Origin: Octopus vulgaris
Lineage: Eukaryota
DNA: 64,000 nt
Assembly: GCA_951406725.2 (NCBI GenBank)
Contig: OX597838.1
Span: forward strand, 6,758,001 to 6,822,000
Direction: 5' to 3'
Numbering within the stretch: position 1 is the stretch's first letter; the number at the start of each line of letters is the position of its first letter. Both the position numbers and the translations under genes were made by a program. Below are positions 9,079 to 56,800 of the stretch, piece after piece. The notes beneath the pieces were generated by a model. It was not told where the DNA came from and did not search any database. It saw only the letters and a program-made list of their open reading frames with translations.

Positions 9079-9375
<297 letters not shown>

Positions 9376-9385
9376 GGTAGACATG

Positions 9386-9524
9386 TACTTTCTGTTTCCC
9401 AGGTATCTAATCACAATGCTTTGGACGATGCCATAGTTGAAGATAGTTGGCCAAAGTGCCGCGCAATGGGACTGAACCCAAGTGCAAGTTGTCGAGAAAT
9501 AAGCTTCTGACCTCAGAGCCACAC
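9386..9524 (-). mobile_element. Degraded 5' part of SINE family B
   Basis: CCAAAGTGCCGCGCAATGGGACTGAACCC resembles 26015-26045. Confidence 0.7.
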
Positions 9525-9594
9525 CAGTTTAATATCATTCTGGAAAGTTCTATCACGAGAGAAAATGCTGTATATTATTAACTGATATCAGTCG

Positions 9595-9800
9595 ATTATG
9601 ACGATGGGCGTTTCAGCGGATGCGACCAGCGGAACAATCTGCTCGTGAAGTAAACGTGCAAGTTTGCTAACTACTCCACAGTCACGTGTGGGAAGCTTAC
9701 TTCCCGATAACCTGTACATGGGTTCAGTTCGACTGTGCGGCACTTTGTCCAAGTATCTTCAATGCTGGCCTCGATGCAACCAAAGCACTGTGAGTAGATA
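9595..9800. mobile_element. SINE C tail fragment (minus, about 9595-9690) abutting a SINE B head fragment (plus, about 9706-9800)
   Basis: CTGCTCGTGAAGTAAACGTGCAAG is the reverse complement of the family C tail; GGGTTCAGTTCGACTGTGCGGCACTTTG matches the family B B-box region. Confidence 0.6.
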
Positions 9801-9838
9801 TCGGCGAGATAAAAGCATTATCTATCTATCTATCTATA

Positions 9839-9873
<35 letters not shown>

Positions 9874-10159
9874 ATGTCTGTCTAGCTAACTAGCACTCCG
9901 TCTGTCTATGTATCTATCTATCCATCTATCTATCTATCCATCTATCTATCTATCTATCTATCTATCCATATATATGTGTGTCTAGCTAACTAGCACTCCA
10001 TCTGTCTATGTATCTATCTATCCATCTATCTACCTCTATATCTATCTATCCATCTATCTATATATTTATCTATTTATCTTTCTATATATCTATCCATCTA
10101 TCAATCTATTATCTACCTCTCAGTGTGACACACAATCTGACACAGCTGGCCCCTTTAAC

Positions 10160-15820: not shown

Positions 15821-15821
<1 letters not shown>

Positions 15822-15856
15822 CGCAGGGGCGGGGTTGTGGCAAGAAGCTTGCTTCC
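15821..15856 (+). mobile_element. Isolated 5' head of SINE family B, broken after AAGAAGCTTGCTTCC
   Basis: GCGCAGGGGCGGGGTTGTGGCAAGAAGCTTGCTTCC aligns with the minus-strand head at 28335-28297 (GAGCAGGAGTGGCTGTGTGGTAAGTAGCTTGCTAACCA). Confidence 0.7.
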
Positions 15857-16150
15857 GCCTCGGTTGTGTCAGGGCTGCTCTTACACTGCAGAAGTCGCCA
15901 CGCTGGTGTACACCTGGCGAAATATTGATTGAAAAAGAAGCTCAGCTCTCATGTAAGACTTTTGCTTCTTGGGATCCAGTGGTTGCTTGTTGTTTGCTGT
16001 ATTATATTTTGTACAAACAAGAAATCCTCATTGGATTCTGGACTCTGGTCTGCCTTCATTTGGGCAAAATTGTTAACTATTAAGTGAATTATTTTGGTGG
16101 GTGGATCTTCTGTTGCCATAAACTGTGGATTGTTTTCTGCTGTTGTGAAG

Positions 16151-16390
16151 ATTATGACCTGCATACGGGATACCGAAATTATGACCTGTATACGGGATAC
16201 CGAATGGCCTCCACAGATAGCTGTGGAGGTCATAACGTTGCCCGCGTTGCAAAGGCTGAAGAAGGCCAATGAGGAATATCGCTTGTGGCCGGGCGGCCCC
16301 GTCACATCACCTGCTTTGTGTTTGAGTGAGGCGTGGGAAATGCATTTATATTGGATAACACCATACAAAATTCTGGTGCATCTAACTTAA
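16151..16390 (+). pseudogene. Relic of a retroelement ORF1 C-terminal domain, homologous to 26372-26660
   Basis: DTEWPPQIAVEVITLPALQRLKKANEEYRLWPG..LSEAW aligns with DPEWPPQVAVEAVAFDVTLGLKELNEDYNLVPG..LREAW; it begins with a 27-bp tandem duplication (16151-16177 and 16178-16204). Confidence 0.8.
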
Positions 16391-16424
16391 GTACCATATT
16401 CCTTTGAATCTAAATTTTGCTGAA

Positions 16425-17710
<1,286 letters not shown>

Positions 17711-18449
17711 AAGTGTACATGGATGTATTAAGATTATATGTATTTCGTTGTTTTTGTTTGTAATTTCTTTTTCTTATATAACTTTTCTTCGTCCTTCTTC
17801 TTTTGTATGGAATAAACAAAAATTGCGTTATATATTGGTCTTTTCTTTCTTTGTCCCCTCTGTGTTCTAATCTTGTTGCTTTCGATTTACAACTCATCCT
17901 TCCGCGTTCATCATTTGACGTTTTATTTTCATAAATCACCCTTACTCTAATCCAATATACGGCTCCTCTTTATATGCTCATGCTCCAGCCATTTATCCCT
18001 CCCTGCTCACACATAATTCCAATCTAATCCCATTATTGTTATCCATACAACCTCTTCATAGATGGCATTTCGTGCGTGTTTCTTCCAATTTAGATGCTGG
18101 CTATGTTGTGAGCTTCAAGGATGCATTAATGTCAGCCAACCAGTTTTGGTTTACCGTCGAGCTATTTCGTTTGGAGGCTTTTAGGGGAGACATCCGGTTA
18201 TTTCTCCTTTCGCAGGTTTTCCTGAAGCTATTAGTGTACACAGAGAGCGCTGAGCTATCAGAAAGTTTAGCGAGCTGAGACACTATATAACGCCATTTCT
18301 TTCGGCTTAACCTTTTGAGATCGATTTCCACCACGGTCTATTTGCCGTTCATCCTGTTGTGGCCGATAAAACAAGTACCAGTTGAGCGCCGAAGTGTTTT
18401 GCGTCCAAATTGGACATACATTCAGTGTATAGATGTTGTTGTCAAGACG

Positions 18450-18716
18450 TTTGGCGTTGTAGTTAGGATATTCAGCTTCCGATCAGAAAGTCGAGAGTTC
18501 GATACCCAGTGCGATACCCAGCAGGCAAAAATGAGCTATGCCAATAATTCAAAGGGCCAGACTTGCCACATTCTATATCACACTGACTCTCTCTGAGATC
18601 TACCTTACTGATACGTGTGTCTATGGAATGATCAACCACTTTGACGTTAATTTCATAAACCAGCTGTTTCGTCAATCGAATCAACTTGTAAACTCGTCGT
18701 CGTAACCGAGAGAGTG
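18450..18716 (+). mobile_element. Degraded SINE family C-like copy
   Basis: GAGTTCGATACCC B-box; TTCAAAGGGCCAG..TTGACGTTAATTTCA..CTCGTCGTCGTAACCGA tail as in 31088-31481. Confidence 0.7.
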
Positions 18717-19886
18717 TCAGCTTTTCATCCATATATGTTGCTCCTGCGTATTAAAAAGGTTTAATCAAAATTGGAAGGTATGCATAAGTTATTGGGTAAA
18801 GCTTTATCTGTTTCGAATACACGATTATGGAATTGTTGGTTTCTAAACATAGGTAGAAGTCCAAAATAAATTGCATTGAATTAATAAACTGATAGTTATC
18901 AGGAATATGACTGAACGACCAATTGTTCCTTAAACCTTTAAAAAATCCATCACCCATCTTTTTCGCAAACTATTTCAAGGAAAGGCTGTGGTTGTTGAGT
19001 CCTCAGGCACCTACAGCTGAAGGCCCTATCAAGGACACGCGTCAGTACACTTACTGCTTGGATTCCCAATTTACCCAAGTAAAACTATGGGTATTTTCCA
19101 TCCATCCATCCCATTTTTTTTATTTACCACCGGTCTCTTGTCGGTTGGCTCGTCTCAAAATATCCAGCATGCTATTGTCATCTGCGACGGAATTCTATTC
19201 ACATGTCTATTGTAACAGTGCTATGACGTCACAATCAGGAGAAGCAGTATCGAAATTAAGAGACTTCAAGCTATTTTGTTAAAAATATAAGCCATTGTTC
19301 GCTATTCCTGTGGCGACCGTGAGCGAAACTTTCTAGGACATCTATTAATTAGGGTCCTGTCAGCAACAGCTGCCATTAGACTGAAAGGTTGCATTCTCAG
19401 ACTTGACTAACGGTGAAGATAGATTTTATCCAATATCTTTATTTTTGGTCTACTCTCATTTCTACTGCCGGTTGGTTCGGTTTTAAGAATCTATCTCGTG
19501 ATCATTTCCTGTGACATTGCAATTGTATGTTCGATGTACCGGAGCTCTGATTTCTCAACGCGTTGAAGTAGCGGTTTAGCCCGAAGGTTTACCACTTTCT
19601 GAGAAAAATCAATCAAATTAACATTAAATTTGAAAAGCCATTATGATTTGTCACCTCAAAATTCTTTAAAAGAAACAGCCACATTTGACAGAGAGGTCGC
19701 AGTTGTTACAGTGTTTCTTAATACAGAACGAAAAGTGAGAATAGTTGATTAGAAAGGAATTATAACTGCTCAGAGAAATATCCAATTACAAAGAACTCAA
19801 TTTTGAAGAAAGAGAACAAATGCAATCTCGATAACCGCCCAATAAAATCAACTTCTATCACACAACAATTAGTGCTGGGACTCCAA

Positions 19887-20009
19887 AGCAAAAGCAAAAA
19901 CATATCTATTACAAAACGTAAAGAATTAGACACTAGCAAGACCTGAGCAAAAGTAAAAACATATCTATTACAATACGTAAAGAATTAGACATAAGCAAGA
20001 CCTGAGCAA
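19887..20009 (+). repeat. 59-bp tandem duplication
   Basis: AGCAAAAG(C/T)AAAAACATATCTATTACAA(A/T)ACGTAAAGAATTAGACA..AGCAAGACCTG occurs twice. Confidence 0.9.
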
Positions 20010-24452: not shown

Positions 24453-24923
24453 ACATACATATACATTCATATATACACATATTTATATATATATATATAT
24501 ATACCTATATATACATATACCTATATATATATATATTTATGCTATGTATCTGGTCGTTTATGAGTTTCTAGTGTTGAATAACAAGCCAAGTGTTATCGCT
24601 AGACGAAGCAGTATATATTCGTATCCGATTGATGTTATATGTAAACGATTGAAGCTGATTTCACTTTGAAGATTGAATCCATCGAAAGCAACAGTCTGAA
24701 CGCTAAATGGATCTGTCTCATGCAGGATATTCCGATATACATACGATAACGACTAACGTCACTGATTGTTATTCTAGATATACTATCGCTAAATTTAATG
24801 ACGAGTATCTCATACTGGCTTACAAACTTCGATACTTGGAGTTCTTGAAGTGTAGTACCAATGAAAACTGCAGCCATGCGGGCAAAGTAAAAACTTGCAT
24901 CTGCTACCATATATCTCCAGAAA

Positions 24924-25313
24924 GTGGAGGCGCAATGGCCCAGTGGGTAGGGCAGCGGACCCGCGGTCAGAGGATCGCGGTTTCGATTCCCAGACCGGAC
25001 ATTGTGAGTGTTTATTGAGCGAAAACACCTAAAGGTGTAAACACCACGAGGCTCCGGCAGGGGATGGTGGTGAACCCTGCTGTACTCTTTCACCACAACT
25101 TTCTCTCGCTCTTTCTATCTGTTTCTCTTGTACCTGTATTTCAAAGGGCCAGTCTTGTCACACTCTGTGTCACGCTGAATCTCCTCGAGAACTACGTTAA
25201 GGGTACACGTGTCTGTGGAGTGCTCAGCCAGTTGCACGTTAATATCACGAGCAAGCTGTTCTGTTGATCGTATCAGCTGAGACCCTCATCGTCGCAACCG
25301 ACGGAGTGCTCCT
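24924..25313 (+). mobile_element. Full-length tRNA-headed SINE family C with TSD
   Basis: A-box TGGCCCAGTGG, B-box GTTTCGATTCC; TSD TATATCT(C/T)CAGAAA at 24910-24923 and 25314-25327; close match to 31088-31481. Confidence 0.9.
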
Positions 25314-25660
25314 TATATCTTCAGAAATGAGAAAACCAAGGGCGATATGGTATTCAGTCGGAGCTGTTACATGTAATAGATTTAAAGTATGACCAACTCT
25401 ATAGTAGGAGTTGTATGTATAATTTGAAACAGTTTGATGAGTTCTTATGCGAATTAATATTTTGCAGACATCAAAAAAAAGCCCATCACTTACATGTATT
25501 GTATTCCTGTTTTTTATTTTATTCTATTTAACGTTTCGGACGAGGTTTTTCTTCAGAAACCGGAAAGAGGGGAAAGTGCAAGAGAAAATGAAGAGAGAGG
25601 AAAAAATCGCCAAGTGTCCGCGTGTGGTTTATGTACAGCTTGAATATATATATATATATA

Positions 25661-25874
25661 TACTCTTTCAATTTACTTATTTCAGTCATTTGACTGCGGC
25701 CATGCTGGAGCACCGCCTTTAATCGAGCAACTCGACCCCGGGACTTATTCTCCGTAAGCCCAATACTTATTCTACCGGTCTCTTTTTTGCCGAACCGCTA
25801 AGTGACGGGGACGTAAACACACCAGCATCGGTTGTCAAGCAATGCTAGGCGGACAAACACAGACACACAAACAT

Positions 25875-25934
<60 letters not shown>

Positions 25935-26074
25935 GACAGGCTTCTTTCAGTTTCCATCTACCAAATCCACTCACAAGGCATTGGTCGGCCCAGGGCTATA
26001 GCAGAAGACACTTGCCCAAGATGCCACGCAGTGGGACTGAACCCGGAACCATGTGGTTGGTTAGCAAGCTACTT
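25661..26074 (-). mobile_element. SINE family B body and tail (its head is displaced to 28297-28335 by an insertion)
   Basis: Family B tail, internal (AT)n and the GGTTCCGGGTTCAGTCCC region on the minus strand; the sequence resumes after the second TSD copy. Confidence 0.9.
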
Positions 26075-26245
26075 TATTTCAAAACATTTGCCATAAAGGC
26101 AGTACACAGATTAAGTTAGCTTTGCGGGCTGGACGAGGACATTAATGAGGTGAATGATAATGAAAGAAAGATGATAAGGATGGGAGAAGACAGAAAGCGC
26201 CCGCCGACTTTTGCTTCTCTAAAACATTGTTCTTTTTAAAAAAGA

Positions 26246-26372
26246 TTAACACAAAACGAGGTATTAAACCTCTTACAATTTTTCCAATTTTGGGCTTAGC
26301 AGTCCATTATTAATACAAAACGAGGTATTAATCCTCTTACAATTTTTCAATTTTTGGACTTAAGTCCATTAC
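26246..26372. repeat. About 63-bp tandem duplication in the element 3'UTR
   Basis: ACAAAACGAGGTATTAA..CTCTTACAATTTTTC..AGTCCATTA occurs twice. Confidence 0.85.
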
Positions 26373-27612
26373 TAATAATACATATCGTCCTCGAAATAGC
26401 TTGTGCCCGCGCCCTCCACCATCAACCACGCCTCCCTCAGAACGTAGTCAAGTTCCGAGTTCGCGTCGCCCGGGACCAAGTTATAGTCTTCATTGAGCTC
26501 CTTTAGCCCTAGCGTCACGTCGAACGCCACGGCCTCCACAGCTACCTGCGGAGGCCATTCGGGGTCCTGTGTGAAGGCTAAAGGTGCTCCCTTGTAGTGC
26601 TCTTCCATCACTTTTTCAATTTCTCTTCCTCTATAGAAGAGGACCAATACATTCAGTTCTTTCGTTGGCGGCACAGTTTCCGCCAACGGTATTCCTTCTC
26701 TTGTCGGTGGCACAACCCCAACCGACGTAGTTCCGCGACATTCCGGTGCCACACTGACAGCCGGCAACACGTTTTTCTTCCTCTTTTTCTTTTTTTTTCC
26801 CTTTTCAACTGAGGGAGGGTGCGTCTCCTCCGTGGCTGGAAGATTCGCCCTCCTCTCCTCATCCCTATTATCCTTTGGTGAGCACCCATTGTTGCTCACC
26901 TTCCTCTTTCGGCCTCTGCTTGAGGAGTCCTCTGCTTTCTCGGCCGTTATCGTTCCCTCTTCTAGAGGGGTTTTACTTAACTGTTCCGGGATCCTATTTT
27001 GTTCCCGAGGACAGTTCTTCTTTATGTGGCCGGACTCCAAGCACCGATGACACTTAGGGGGCGACCCTCAAGGATCACCGGGTACCTGCACCCGGCCATT
27101 TTCAAAAAATCTGGAAAAACCAGATTGGCTGATTGGGTCCACAGGGTCAAAACTGCTTTCGAGCCAACCCAAGCAGCCGCAGGAAGAACTTTTACATTGA
27201 GGAGCTTAGTTTCGCTGTCACCCAGACCCCGGCGGATAGTCTCCTCTATCCACTCGGGTTCTATGTCGGGTGGCAGTCCGCAGATCCAAGCTTTCATTAA
27301 TTTCTTTTTTTTGTAAGTGGGCAGGAATAAGATTTCCTTACCCTCCAAGGGTTCGCTAGCAAATTTGCAAGCCTCTTCAGGGGTGTCAAACAGCAACCAC
27401 ACCGTTCCATATTTGACACCCCTGGAAATGAATTTAATTGTTGGCAAATACTCCTCCAACTCCTCCTCAATTGCCGTCTTTTCGAATAGGGCGATGGTGT
27501 CAAGTGCCTTGGAGTAGGTTCTCAACACCACCGTCCTATCTTCACGGTCCTTCAACCACTTTTTGGGTGGTATGATTTCCCACTCCAAAACTTTGTTATT
27601 TTTCATTGCCAT
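26372..27612 (-). pseudogene. ORF1/gag-like nucleic-acid-binding protein (about 413 aa if repaired), with one frameshift near 27057-27061
   Basis: ORFs 27022..27612 and 26372..27040 join with one extra C: ..VILEGRPPK-CHRCLESGHIKKNC (CX2CX4HX4C). The N-terminal part is RRM-like, followed by a basic linker (RGRKRK, KKKKKRKK) and a C-terminal WPPQVAVE domain. Confidence 0.85.
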
Positions 27613-28296
27613 GTTTTTTAAAAAATATATTCAAATTAGACTCAAAAGCAGGAAGAAAAAAGTTCAAAAGTCTAAATAAATTTGATAGATTTTTGAAAAA
27701 ACAAAAAGGAGAAAGCACAACAGAAGGGAAGAAATTAACGGAAAGTCGCAATAAAGAAAAAACAAATGGGGGGGGGGGGGGGTAAATGAAGTTCAATAGA
27801 AAGTTAATAAACAGAAAAAACACAGCAAAAATATTCTGCGGTACTCCCGGCCTGGGTTGAACCTGGAACGCCGCAACTGCAACACAACCTCCACAAAAAT
27901 GGGTCCGAAAGGTAATCCAATAGTGGCTTATTTTTATACTTTTCTTGCGAAGTACTCTGACAAGGGAATAAATTCAGCAAACTCAAACACAGCACTGGTT
28001 ACTGCCAACGGTAATTTTAACAGTAACTGTATTGAATCCTGAGTATACGCCCCTCCACTGTTTTTTCTTTTTTTTTTTTTTCAATGAACACAAAAACGGC
28101 AGCCGCCTAGCGCAGGCGAAATTGTCTGAGTTGAACACAACCTACTGAAATAATAATTGGCACGCAATAAATTATGCCCAACTCACAATAAACAAAATCA
28201 CTTACCTCGACAACTTTCCGTTTTTGGTCTTTTTTCTTCAGTTGGACTCACGTCCACTCTAGCTCAACAAGAAGCAACCGACTAACTGCGCATGTC

Positions 28297-28335
28297 TGGT
28301 TAGCAAGCTACTTACCACACAGCCACTCCTGCTCC
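28297..28335 (-). mobile_element. 5' head of the interrupted SINE B
   Basis: Minus strand GGAGCAGGAGTGGCTGTGTGGTAAGTAGCTTGCTAACCA (A-box like). Confidence 0.85.
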
Positions 28336-29719
28336 TATATATATATATATCAAACATATTGGAACAGTGGATCTGGACATTTATAATGCTATATAGAATA
28401 TTATGTCTTCGAGTTCAACCTTACGGTTTGTGTATCCGAAAGGGTTTTTCTCCCGAATGTTTTAATGATATTATTGAGAATTCTATATTCTTGAAATCCA
28501 CTGCTCTTAACATATTTATTCCACGTTCTTTCGAAAGTTTATGATTTCTCGTAGTGTAAACAACACAGACGCATATATATGTATGCATGTACAAACGTAT
28601 ACACACATCAATACATATACTGATGCATATATATATACATAAAATATCGATAGATATTTACATGCGTACATTCCTGCGCAAACGCACGTTTACGTACTTA
28701 CAAATATACAATCATGCATGAATGCATACATACATGAACGAACAAGAAATTAGCAGGAAAATACGAGGGGAAAATTAATGCGATGTAAAAAAAGTTAAGA
28801 ATGAACAAGGAATGAAAGAACGAAAAGAATGAAAAACCTAAAAGAGAACGAAAAATAAAAGAGACAAAAAACTCTTGACGAGAATAGCTTTATATAAAAA
28901 ATGACTGTGAAATCACTGAGAAAAAAAACACACACAGTCTCGAGACAAATGAAGAAAAGTTAATTAAAAGTCGATACAACATAAGGAAAACAATAAAATA
29001 CGTAGTCCTATTATGTTATTTTATCAGTGAACAGCGTACATTCTTATCATTCATCTCATTGTTACTCTTGCTTCTGTCATTCCGATGTAATTATTATCAA
29101 GGTTACAAGGTTCTTAGTTTTTTTCTCGGAAAAATTTTTTTCTTTAATTTTATTTAATTATTGTTATTGGTACGATTTCTTTCTTACTTGTAGTATTGTT
29201 TTGTGTTGTTCTTGCTCTTTCTCTTCTTGTTTTTAATTTTCTAGTGTTTATTCATTTCTCTGTGTGTATGGGTGTTGTTTCAGCTGTTCTTATTCTTACT
29301 TGTTGCGGTTGTTGCACTACAGCCTGTTACAATCTGTGTAAAAGCTTTTGTTTCAAACGTTGAAAACGATGAAGCTCCAGTTCTCTCCCGGTGTTATTTC
29401 TTCATCTTTTTTCTTCCTTGTCATACGAAGCGTATCATTTGTATCACCATTTTTTTTTTCTTGCTGTTTTCATGCCTTCGTCTTCTTACTATAGTTATTC
29501 TTCTGGCTGTTGTAATCAATTACTCTAGAGAAAGAGGTCGTAACCTATACGTTTGAAATGTGTCAGGTAAATCCATTACGTATTTTGATTCCATAGGATA
29601 TTGCTACTCTCAGAGGTACCTTGTGGTTGTAATTTCACGATTCTAAAATGTACGGTCTTTGTGCTAATCGCAACAAGTTGAATTGTTCATATATTTTATA
29701 TACCACTCACACACCAATA

Positions 29720-30310
<591 letters not shown>

Positions 30311-31087
30311 ATCTATTTGTTGCAGAGAAACGAATATATGAAATATTTATCATTATAATACTACGCTATTTGTAATATTTTCTCTACCTTTAGAAAATTG
30401 ATTTGGAACCAATTCAAAATAAATAAAGACATATCTATTCTTATAATATAAAGTCATTGTGTTGAGGTCTCAAAATGAAAAACTTCCCATCAAACATTGA
30501 TGAAATATAAACATAGATGTAAAAAGTAACTTCCGGCAATCTATATTGTTCATTCACTTAAATATCTTCCTTAACATCCTGTTTCCGTTTCTTTATTTTC
30601 TCATGTACGATCACACATATATAATAATTGTGTTTAAAATCTTCGTCCGGGAGAATAATATGCGACCGGAGATTTATTCGGTTTCTTTAGCCCAGCCTTA
30701 GCAGGTTCGTCATGAACTGTTGTCAATCGATGTCGTACAATGAAGAAAAATCGTGTTTAAGTAAGAGTATTCCAGAGTTTGGAACATTATGGTTAGTTTT
30801 GGTAAAGAAAAAATGGAAATTGACAGCAGAAATATTTCAGTCGAATGCTTTGATGGAGAAGCTTCACGAGATTTTGTCAGCCAGGACCAGAGTCGAGTGC
30901 AGAGACAATGAGAGGCCCAGTGACGTGATAGCAGATATTTCAGTCACGGGAGGAATTGTTTTCGTGAATAACTAACTTCTAAGTTGGATGATAATTTGTA
31001 GGAAAAACGACATCAATGTTAGAATTACAGTTGCAGCACAGTCTCGAATGTGTAAACTACTATAAGCATTTATTGTATTTGAAACAA

Positions 31088-31481
31088 GTGGAGGCGCAAT
31101 GGCCCAGTGGTTAGGGCAGCGGCCTCGCGGTCATAGGATCGCGGTTTCGATTCCCAGACCGGGCGTTGTGAGTGTTTATTGAGCGAAAACACCTAAAGCT
31201 CCACGAGGCTCCGGCAGGGGATGGTGGTGATCCCTGCTGTACTCTTTCACCACAATTTTCTCTCACTCTTACTTCCTGTTTCTGTTGTACCTGTATTTCA
31301 AAGGGCCGGCCTTGTCACTGTCTGTGTCATGCTGAATATCCCCGAGAACTACGTTAAGGGTACACGTGTCTGTGGAGTGCTCAGCCACTTACACGTTAAT
31401 TTCACGAGCAGGCTGTTCCGTTGATTGGATCAACCGGAACCCTCGTCGTCGTAACCGACGGAGTGCTTAGAAAAAAAAAAC
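31088..31481 (+). mobile_element. Full-length SINE family C with A-tail and TSD
   Basis: A and B boxes, A10 tail, TSD TTGAAACAA at 31079-31087 and 31482-31490. Confidence 0.92.
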
Positions 31482-53399: not shown

Positions 53400-55190
53400 G
53401 GGCCAGCAGTATTCTAGGCGTCGATTTTTAGAGGAAAAGAGGAGAACGACCACAACTTATTCACATCTTACTCGGAAACATCTGAGGATACAGGAGCTCA
53501 TCTTGACAGACATATCGACTTTATTGTGAATGGGGGCATTGCAGCTGAGACTGTTGACAATAGTCATTCTTAAGTCCCTGATACTAATAGGTACCGTGAG
53601 TTATTGCGTCGATGGAAGAGAATATTTGCGTCTTTCACTTTCGACTAAAGAAATTCAAGAAAATTCAGAATTTTTCTTTCTGGAAAACAAATTTAAATGG
53701 CAATATCTTTACCAACCAGCCGACCGAATTAAGGGTTTTTTAGTGGTTTTGAAAGGAGGGTGAGCAATTTAGTTATTCAGTAAACGAAAATCATACTTGC
53801 CCAAAATCGAAAATCTAGAAATACTACACACAGCCTCAGTAAGATCATCAGCATTAACAGTAACAACAGCATCAACAATTAAACGCAACACAAAAGAAAA
53901 CTCTACTACTACAACCATTCCTGCAGCAGCAGTCTTAAACCGCAGCAACTGCAATAAAAGTACGCATAAATCACCATCATCATTGCCGTAGTAGTTAGCA
54001 TTGGACTATACAACCGCAGCGACAACAATAACAGCAACATCAACACCTCGCTATTACCTCTCCCCAACATCAGCACCTCGCTATCCAAACACCCACTGCT
54101 ACTACTGTTACTAACTTTTTCAACACTACATCCATTCTTAATATTACCAAAGTGCAGGCCTGAAGCAACAACATAAAACAGAAAATTCTTCGAAATATTG
54201 GCAACACATTTCATCCACGTCTCTATGACAAAGAAAAAATACCCATTTAAAAATGTAGGAGACATATATATAACCTTTGTGGGTCGGGAGAATATGGCTC
54301 ACGTACAGGTTGTACCTTTCAACTTTCGGAAAATAAAGTAAAAATAGAATTACTCCCCAACTAATTGCTGGTATTGTTTTCAAAACTAGGTTATTGGGTG
54401 CATGGCACTCGAATGTTGCCAAGCGCTCACAGCCCTCTTCCAGTCAGGCAATGGAATCGGTGGATGTTTTTCTCTTTAGAAATTTATAGCGAACTAATGG
54501 CAGTAATTTTGACGAGGATCTCGGGGACACAGTTGGTGTTGACGCAAACAAACTGACCCGTCTGTTTTGGAGGACCTTCCTCTCGGGAACTATCACGGGT
54601 AATTTCCAGGTGTCCTCGACCTCGCGATGCTCCCCATGGACGCTACCGGTTCGAGATAAACTCTACAGGCATGGATGTGCTGTTAGACGGGCTTGTCCGA
54701 GTGACGAAACCGTTCTGCACGTACCCGTTCAGCATCCGGACATTTCTGACTTGTGGGGTTATGTCCAGCAGCTGCTGTCACGTGTGCGATGGATCTCTCT
54801 ATCGGCCGAGTCTACATCCTTTAATCATGCAGGCAAGACAGATTTCCTATGCCTGCTGGCTGTGGCGAAAATGATTGTTTGGTGGACGAAGCTCAGAAGC
54901 ATGAGAACTGATACATTCCTCTTTGGTAGAGCTGACTTCACCAAGTTTCAATTCTCCCCAAAAAAAGTGAGGGTGGAGAGAAAAGTTAAGTCCTCGAGCG
55001 AGTTCATTGAAAGGTGGGTGAAAGTTACAAAATGGCAAGAGTGGATGGTAACTGTCAAGTGTAGACCTTAGAGTCGGAGAAAGGGAATTGGAGAGAGCAG
55101 CTGCCCGTGGTATTCAGGGACATCTTGGACAATGAGGTTCCTCGATTATTCCTAGAGGTAATTCTGTATGAGATGGAAAATCATTCCCCA
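53400..55190 (+). mobile_element. Decayed, internally deleted L1/Tx1-clade LINE (ORF1 relic joined to the ORF2 C-terminus)
   Basis: RRFLEEKRRT..TYS and VVLKGG resemble KKWLKDREDRTVVLRTYS and VILEGR of the 27.6-kb ORF1; 54610-55071 gives LPVRDKLYRHG..CP..ETVLH..LW (zf-RVT-like ORF2 C-terminus); (TTA)n follows. Confidence 0.7.
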
Positions 55191-55192
55191 CA

Positions 55193-55193
55193 C

Positions 55194-55769: not shown

Positions 55770-56800
55770 GAGAGCAAGATTGATTTCTGTTTGACACTAA
55801 TCTTTTATTTCCAAACGCGCCTTAACAATTTTTTGGATTTTCAAAGGGATTCATCCTCATTTCCCGATCACAATTGGCATCACTCTTTCTTTACTTTTCC
55901 GCATTCCAAGCAATCTCCACTTACAAAGCGGACTACTTCGTAATTTTTTATTTTTCTGCAAAATTCCAAACCTCTGTTTTATTCTTACTAAAATGCTACA
56001 CATCATCCATGTAGAGCAAATGGTAAAGACGCCATTTACTATTTCTTACCCGATGCCCTGATTTTAATTTTCTTAATACTAATCTAAAGTGGATTAAACA
56101 TAACACAAATATTAAAGGGGATAAACGAGTCTCCTTGTAAAATTCCTCTCTTTGATACTAACTTTCTCTACAGCTTTACCACCTGAGTAAAAATCGATTT
56201 TCCATTTCTTCATACTATAGCAAATAAAATCCCTTATGTTCTCTGTAATAAAGAATATTCTCAAGCATTCACCGATGCATGTTCGTGGAATTAGGTCATA
56301 GGGTTTCTTATAATCTCTCCTAGCTAGTGTTAAATTCTTATTTCTAGATTTCGCTACTTTTAGGACTGTATAACAGGTCATACATCCCTCTAGCTTTCTT
56401 CCGGTAAATTTCCTTCTTTTCAGGAAGTAAATTCTTGCTCTATCAAGGCGCTCATCGATGGTTTCTGGGCGTATTCCTGTTAATAAAGTCCACACGAATG
56501 TTAAGCAAGTGATTGGTCCATAATTAGTTGTTATATTGTTCATGATTTTCTCATTTACAAGGAGTAATGTTCTCTCTCTCCCCCTCTCTCTCTCTTTCTC
56601 TCTCTCTCTCTCCAGTTATCTAATTAAGTATAACTCCTCAATTCAGGCAATCCGGAAGTTCTTCCCTCAATCTCCCATGTAAATTATCAAATTTCTTTAA
56701 CCATTACCCTTGAACTATATCTGGACTTTTCCATTTCGACTTTCTTCCTAAGATTTCCTCTCATAATTTAAACTATCCTGAATCCGCAGTACTGGTTTAT
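55770..56800 (-). pseudogene. Decayed reverse transcriptase of an R4/Dong-like (RLE) non-LTR retrotransposon
   Basis: WLKKF..LH, NYGPITCL..W.LLTG, DYKKPYD, RGILQGD and HLLYMDD (YMDD at 56013-56002), with stops, frameshifts and an inserted (GA)n. Confidence 0.85.

Follow-up and report, generated by a model that had tools for sequence, protein, structure and literature searches.

A family of non-LTR retroelements in the octopus likely prefers one site in the head of the repeat SINE B. The reference member, element B, lies in a 64,000-nt stretch of Octopus vulgaris DNA (the window), where it sits within a near-intact SINE B. B is a non-autonomous, multi-copy, ORF1-only non-LTR octopus family of half-LINE (HAL1-like) design, and strict specificity of this family for the SINE head is unproven. 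A second locus in the window (locus A) carries a broken SINE B head followed by a diverged piece of the same ORF1. We lean slightly towards reading locus A as an insertion of the same kind into a SINE head; it is probably an old, incomplete copy belonging to B's family.

Element B is an ORF1-only element inserted in a SINE

The features of element B and its host SINE are as follows:

28314–28336, minus strand: head of the SINE that hosts B, lying upstream of the duplicated target site
28297–28313, minus strand: 17-bp target site duplication, 5' copy, a perfect match to the 3' copy
26075–28296, minus strand: element B, 2,222 bp, with a ~680-nt 5' UTR, ORF1 and a ~300-nt 3' UTR; no ORF2; multi-copy
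27025–27612, minus strand: first piece of ORF1, with two domains of RRM fold; this copy is frameshifted near 27056
26372–27067, minus strand: ORF1 second piece, with a CCHC knuckle, a basic linker and the C-terminal part common to locus A
26058–26074, minus strand: 17-bp target site duplication, 3' copy, a perfect match to the 5' copy
25660–26057, minus strand: body of B's host SINE, with a B-box-like motif, internal microsatellite and tail

The 5' UTR of B is T-rich, and its 3' UTR ends in AATAAA overlapping the duplication. The B family thus displays the hallmarks of target-primed reverse transcription (17-bp duplication, AATAAA 3' end and 5'-truncated copies), none of which is seen at locus A alone. 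The 3' UTR also contains a tandem duplication of ~65–70 nt (26245–26377), and loose contig ends at 26245 and 26312 suggest that members of the family differ in it. Two motifs of the host SINE, whose starts lie 43 nt apart, are A-box-like and B-box-like. ARAGORN predicts 0 tRNA genes and Rfam returns no tRNA match.

The predicted structure of ORF1 (21 sequences, pLDDT 86.7) places two RRM folds ahead of the CCHC knuckle, and the model is closest to tandem RRM proteins (best Z 8.8, rmsd 2.6 over 81 residues). The zf-CCHC match in B's own ORF1 has an E value of 0.0037, below the curated cut-off, and such a match is found in 8/21 members of the alignment. Neighbours in the Atlas are CCHC and ZCCHC3-type RBD clusters (0.88–0.92). 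As modelled, B's ORF1 is a generic Type I protein (RRM + CCHC), sharing with Type I ORF1p and the ZCCHC3-type clusters the order of two RRM folds and then a CCHC knuckle. It differs from Type I ORF1p in the C-terminal part common to locus A, for which Pfam, the Atlas (109 aa) and protein searches gave no match. According to the sections of PMC5203782 used here, Type I ORF1p fits Tx1 in animals other than mammals and is not limited to Tx1. The likeness needed for Tx1, RRM(s) plus CCHC, is present in B's ORF1 and is not diagnostic. ORF2 is absent from both B and locus A, and with it the reverse transcriptase that defines Tx1, so neither can be filed there.

Sequencing contigs establish the family as multi-copy. 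Part of B is contained in 20 of the 24 listed runs (8 studies, five organisms), and it is matched by 3874 contigs in run X7 and 2056 in run X16, with all 30 bins covered, including the passage from ORF1 to the 3' UTR. No single contig in X7 or X16 spans the whole element. The frameshift near 27056 is absent in 7 X7 contigs. Together, the multi-copy contigs and the lack of ORF2 identify B as a multi-copy ORF1-only family, a nature that the original prediction had overlooked.

At the protein level, the first piece of ORF1 gave 34 matches among 1.84 billion protein representatives, with ORF1 relatives at 24–75% identity. Among 20 ORF1 matches examined, all 10 that carry a species name are from Octopus (O. 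sinensis, O. vulgaris, O. bimaculoides). Weak searches with the second piece of ORF1, with the ORF1 alignment (long proteins only) and with the C-terminal part returned no homologs, and two weak searches found no autonomous partner. In the O. sinensis gene model P0002, the first ~45 residues of the ORF1 family form part of a predicted protein that carries an integrase core domain; P0002 is probably a chimeric gene model over nested elements. Searches of viral, prokaryote and metagenome contigs for the SINE-head pattern gave 0 matches, in keeping with an octopus repeat.

Several other repeats occur in the window. A decayed stretch at 54490–55193 (plus strand), which we take to resemble an L1/Tx1 ORF2 at its C-terminal end, tail included, and which has no Pfam support, ends directly at a (TTA)n run that is followed by another SINE. 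A tail common to this fragment and B was considered and rejected, the two tails being unrelated. On the minus strand, an open frame at 56112–56615 looks by eye like the degraded remains of a reverse transcriptase from a different LINE. At 9088–9507 and 9692–10109, two old copies of SINE B face each other by their heads, ~185 nt apart, as an inverted pair (73%). A third, younger repeat family is represented by 24922–25310 and 31086–31467, which share 89% identity across 389 nt; incomplete copies lie at 18545–18716 and 9588–9689.

A second SINE head is broken at nearly the same site

Locus A comprises the following features:

15821–15856, plus strand: SINE B head, ending 2 nt before the 5' junction of B, at the equivalent of 28299
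15857–16150, no strand assigned: T-rich spacer; 15946–16081 marginally like the end of B's 5' UTR; no inversion match
16151–16204, plus strand: 27-nt tandem duplication, 26/27 identical, at the start of the ORF1-like piece
16180–16342, plus strand: diverged piece corresponding to the 3' end of ORF1 in B, within the open frame 16088–16390; dN/dS ~1.2 versus B
16204–16233, plus strand: hairpin of 13 bp closed by a 4-nt loop, coinciding with the WPPQxAVE motif; B counterpart at 26558–26529

Over 15821–15853 the locus A head shares 24/33 nt with the SINE head that hosts B; apart from the B locus, no sequence in the window matches that head better. When six other SINE copies are combined into a profile, it aligns to 15821–15855 (E 0.001), with an envelope reaching 15871; the break is therefore placed near 15856 and is not fixed to the base. 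Beyond this point the fit to the SINE falls to shuffle level: 503/2000 shuffles equal it at 35 nt, and over the next 35–100 nt 453–936/2000 fit the SINE as well. By comparison, five older unbroken SINE copies keep 21–28 matches in the same 35 nt. A SINE continuing through the spacer is thus rejected. In the ungapped alignment the head ends at the equivalent of 28299, and B's 5' junction is at 28297. Profile and shuffle comparison therefore agree with the original prediction that a SINE B head stops near 15856, ~2 nt from B's insertion site. The rest of this SINE is missing, as had also been proposed: blastn finds no SINE body in 16390–20000, and the rows listed for that interval match only the SINE's internal microsatellite. 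In the window as a whole, the break at this site occurs in two of seven SINE B heads, each of which is then followed by B-family sequence.

The ORF1-like piece begins about 325 nt after the locus A head. The claim that it is a diverged homolog of B's ORF1 C-terminal part, in the same orientation as the SINE, proved sound. At the nucleotide level 16192–16295 is 73% identical to 26570–26467 (76/104 nt), and nhmmer matches the piece to B with an E value of 7e-15 and finds no further B match in the window. The encoded protein is 41% identical over 54 aa, with an alignment score of 111 compared to a maximum of 50 in 1000 shuffles. ORF1 piece and SINE share one orientation at both loci.

The spacer of about 297 nt between head and ORF1-like piece is less readily assigned. 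The likeness of 15946–16081 to the end of B's 5' UTR is reached by 16/300 shuffles, i.e. at the margin of chance; it would fit an internally deleted sister element. The spacer (15857–16150) has no other match in the 64-kb window and no ORF1-profile match on either strand. A 5' inversion, raised earlier as a possible origin of this interval, was rejected against B and the ORF1 profile on both strands, these references standing in place of a consensus of locus A's own family: reversed 15857–16154 is matched to B as well by 339/1000 shuffles (651/2000 when anchored). Likewise, in-frame likeness of the reversed spacer to the B residues upstream of the shared block (18/84 nt) is not above shuffles. 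With neither a 3' junction nor a target duplication, locus A does not qualify as a clean second insertion.

The shared motif overlies a conserved hairpin

The shared C-terminal stretch had been put forward as a protein domain marked by the motif WPPQxAVE. Comparison of the two loci does not support this. Differences between locus A and B are spread evenly over codon positions (18/50, 17/50 and 14/51), with a dN/dS of 1.18, and the best-kept block is the hairpin, identical at 27/30 nt versus 74/120 elsewhere. Differences within the stem preserve pairing, and the hairpin blocks of A and B have folding z values of −2.7 and −4.4. Contig depth in X7 peaks over this region, at 161 thousand in bin 26506–26581 compared to 24–32 thousand in the adjacent bins. 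WPPQ is absent from all 37 collected proteins. Rfam gives no match at the hairpin, ribozymes included; its only matches, none of them to tRNA, are sub-threshold and fall on microsatellites. A dN/dS of ~1.2 together with the overlap with the conserved hairpin suggests that the WPPQxAVE stretch may be kept as RNA; as far as two sequences can hint at it, the motif may act as a signal in the RNA and not as a domain of the protein.

Independent contigs carry junctions at the same site

Junctions were sought in the contigs of run X7, which derive from another organism than the window's. The query was B plus 25 nt of SINE at each end, with a cut-off of 85% likeness over 21–25 nt of head, at which variant heads would be missed. 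The 12 X7 rows listed, of 22, comprise two head joints, one SINE-body joint, two SINE-to-SINE joints and seven internal joints. In one head joint 26202 is joined to 28297 with 22 letters between, which by eye resemble a diverged element (11/16). In the other, 26226 is joined to 28302 with 3 letters between; it reads as head to 28299 with one mismatch and so ends at the same point as locus A's break. The depths of these two contigs are 41.6 and 45.4, and both place the element's last 130–150 nt directly at the SINE head. Their different truncation points imply separate events. A further junction, 26078 to 26138 (depth 48.4), must carry the SINE-body side. With depths of 42–48, near the 46–67 of many other X7 rows, the junction contigs are read as single copy. 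Hence four 5' junctions (A, B and two in X7) fall within 3 nt in one orientation, with one extra 3' junction.

These three contigs at the same site support the part of the original prediction that proposed a SINE-head-targeting family as far as a preference is concerned, while specificity in the strict sense stays unproven. PMC4494074, in the sections used here, requires >20% of flanks to be of one kind for a target-specific family; the listings here supply 3 supporting cases among 12 of 22 rows and 0 among 15 of 51 joints.

The preference has to be weighed against wide insertion with a loose T-A-rich nick preference, where junctions pile up in an abundant SINE head and locus A is a chance neighbour. 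The target is indeed abundant, SINEs making up 11.6% of the O. vulgaris assembly according to the portion of PMC13282606 used here, and the spacer of locus A is not tied to the element. Furthermore, the visible head junctions are few beside the copies that seem truncated, which number in the hundreds (the listing covers 12 of 718 loose ends): none of the 15 listed of 51 joints reaches a head, and given the joints listed, head junctions can account for at most about 48 rows. X7 depth rises from about 4–11 thousand over the 5' UTR's first 270 nt to 43–55 thousand at 26107–26111, a gradient that suggests hundreds of copies lacking B's 5' part, more than the unlisted rows could cover. The shortage of head joints against this gradient is ambiguous because variant heads are missed at 85% likeness. 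The clustering itself argues the other way. The chance of one junction in a 5-nt head window in the right orientation is 2.7e-4 (7 heads per 64 kb), and two hits among 300–1000 copies, a number that is assumed as a rough guess since summed depth is no copy number, give P 0.003–0.03 for the X7 pair alone, on top of which all four 5' junctions agree in site and orientation. In addition, none of the best-supported 12 of 718 loose ends lies at 26075 or 28296, so that no heterogeneous-flank row appears among them at either end. We consider an absence of specialisation unlikely.

Template switching could generate SINE heads in another manner. Were the reverse transcriptase to jump from the element RNA to a fragment of SINE RNA severed at a constant position, roughly that of a tRNA anticodon loop, a SINE head would be added at the 5' end, and locus A and the two X7 head contigs would be no insertions. 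The sections of PMC4494074 used here report Tx1 families that bear small-RNA heads, as well as U6-L1 chimeras; locus A has a head without a SINE body, and the two X7 contigs show the 5' side only. Element B, by contrast, has head, duplication and body and is thus a true insertion; one X7 contig carries the SINE-body side, and a chimera joint would need to coincide with B's nick site. This renders template switching improbable.

Uniform flanks at both ends would likewise arise from one founding insertion into a SINE master copy, with the composite multiplied as a unit and the short forms being deletion derivatives. Locus A could then be an internally deleted composite, given the 5' UTR likeness of its spacer (16/300 shuffles). 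Yet both X7 deletions, which lie in diverged subfamilies, would need to start no more than 2 nt from the first base of the element, and the heads of A and B differ at 9/33 nt. A single founding event is accordingly the least probable of these accounts, and there is little to recommend it.

Proposed mechanism

Our favoured account, held with a fair degree of confidence, is that B was copied by means of a partner's ORF2 with a site-preferring endonuclease, and that locus A is an older sister-family copy at the same site. B's RNA would be copied by target-primed reverse transcription with ORF2 supplied by an autonomous partner of L1/Tx1 type, and the endonuclease of that partner would prefer one site in the SINE B head. 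The first nick would fall just after the A-box-like motif (base 28313 side) and the second 15–17 nt downstream, which would explain 5' junctions at 28297–28299. Insertion would thereby part the A-box-like from the B-box-like motif of the SINE, the target being a harmless, abundant repeat. Locus A would represent an older, rearranged sister-family copy; its 3' end, together with the remainder of its host SINE, would have disappeared into a microsatellite later on. The sections of PMC4494074 used here state that target choice of non-LTR elements is set mainly by the endonuclease and that non-autonomous elements inherit the target of their partner, e.g. SINEU from Tx1-Mar.

Relation to known systems

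Mutsu inserts in 5S and Dewa near tRNA genes. B resembles these elements and Keno in landing in a multi-copy small-RNA-like sequence, a safe site, and differs from all three in that its target is a SINE copy and no functional RNA gene. Keno inserts in U2 snRNA genes, as reported in the part of PMC4494074 used here. The same part describes Tx1L in Tx1D (Xenopus), Tx1-Mar and SINEU-3 in Mariner-N4_AMi, and Tx1-8_Crp and Tx1-4_AMi in LTR elements. As with Tx1L/Tx1D, Tx1-Mar and SINEU there, a non-LTR element and non-autonomous passengers would occupy fixed positions in a repeat, and truncated copies are taken as proof of separate events. Unlike the Tx1L and Tx1-Mar cases, the target of B is a SINE head, the passenger encodes ORF1 and the host is an octopus.

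B shares with HAL1 of mammals a non-autonomous, multi-copy, ORF1p-only nature, although B's ORF1 is Type I (RRM-RRM-CCHC) and that of HAL1 is of the mammalian Transposase_22 type; no fixed target of HAL1 is reported in the portion of PMC5753468 on which this comparison draws. For O. vulgaris, the portion of PMC13282606 used here lists 13 recently active L1-Tx1 families and states no insertion targets for them. At the level of titles and abstract beginnings, no SINE-targeting Tx1 or octopus case was found in the literature; a repeat-library entry for the family may exist.

Significance

B's family is probably a new variant among the repeat-targeting L1/Tx1-type elements, the new feature being the SINE head as target. 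Known targets of repeat-targeting non-LTR elements are DNA transposons, LTR elements, snRNA genes and microsatellites, and the SINE head as target of an ORF1-only passenger in a mollusc would lengthen this list, leaving established mechanisms unchanged. For octopus repeat annotation, nested LINE-in-SINE copies would inflate the SINE family count. Once the partner is found, it would offer a new sequence-specific endonuclease for study. We advance more tentatively the broader idea of an octopus L1/Tx1-type lineage whose endonuclease reads one tRNA-like SINE-head site across several subfamilies and species, and whose ORF1-only passengers share the hairpin as a cis signal. If true, this would be a LINE lineage with SINEs as its niche, breaking SINE Pol III promoters while spreading.
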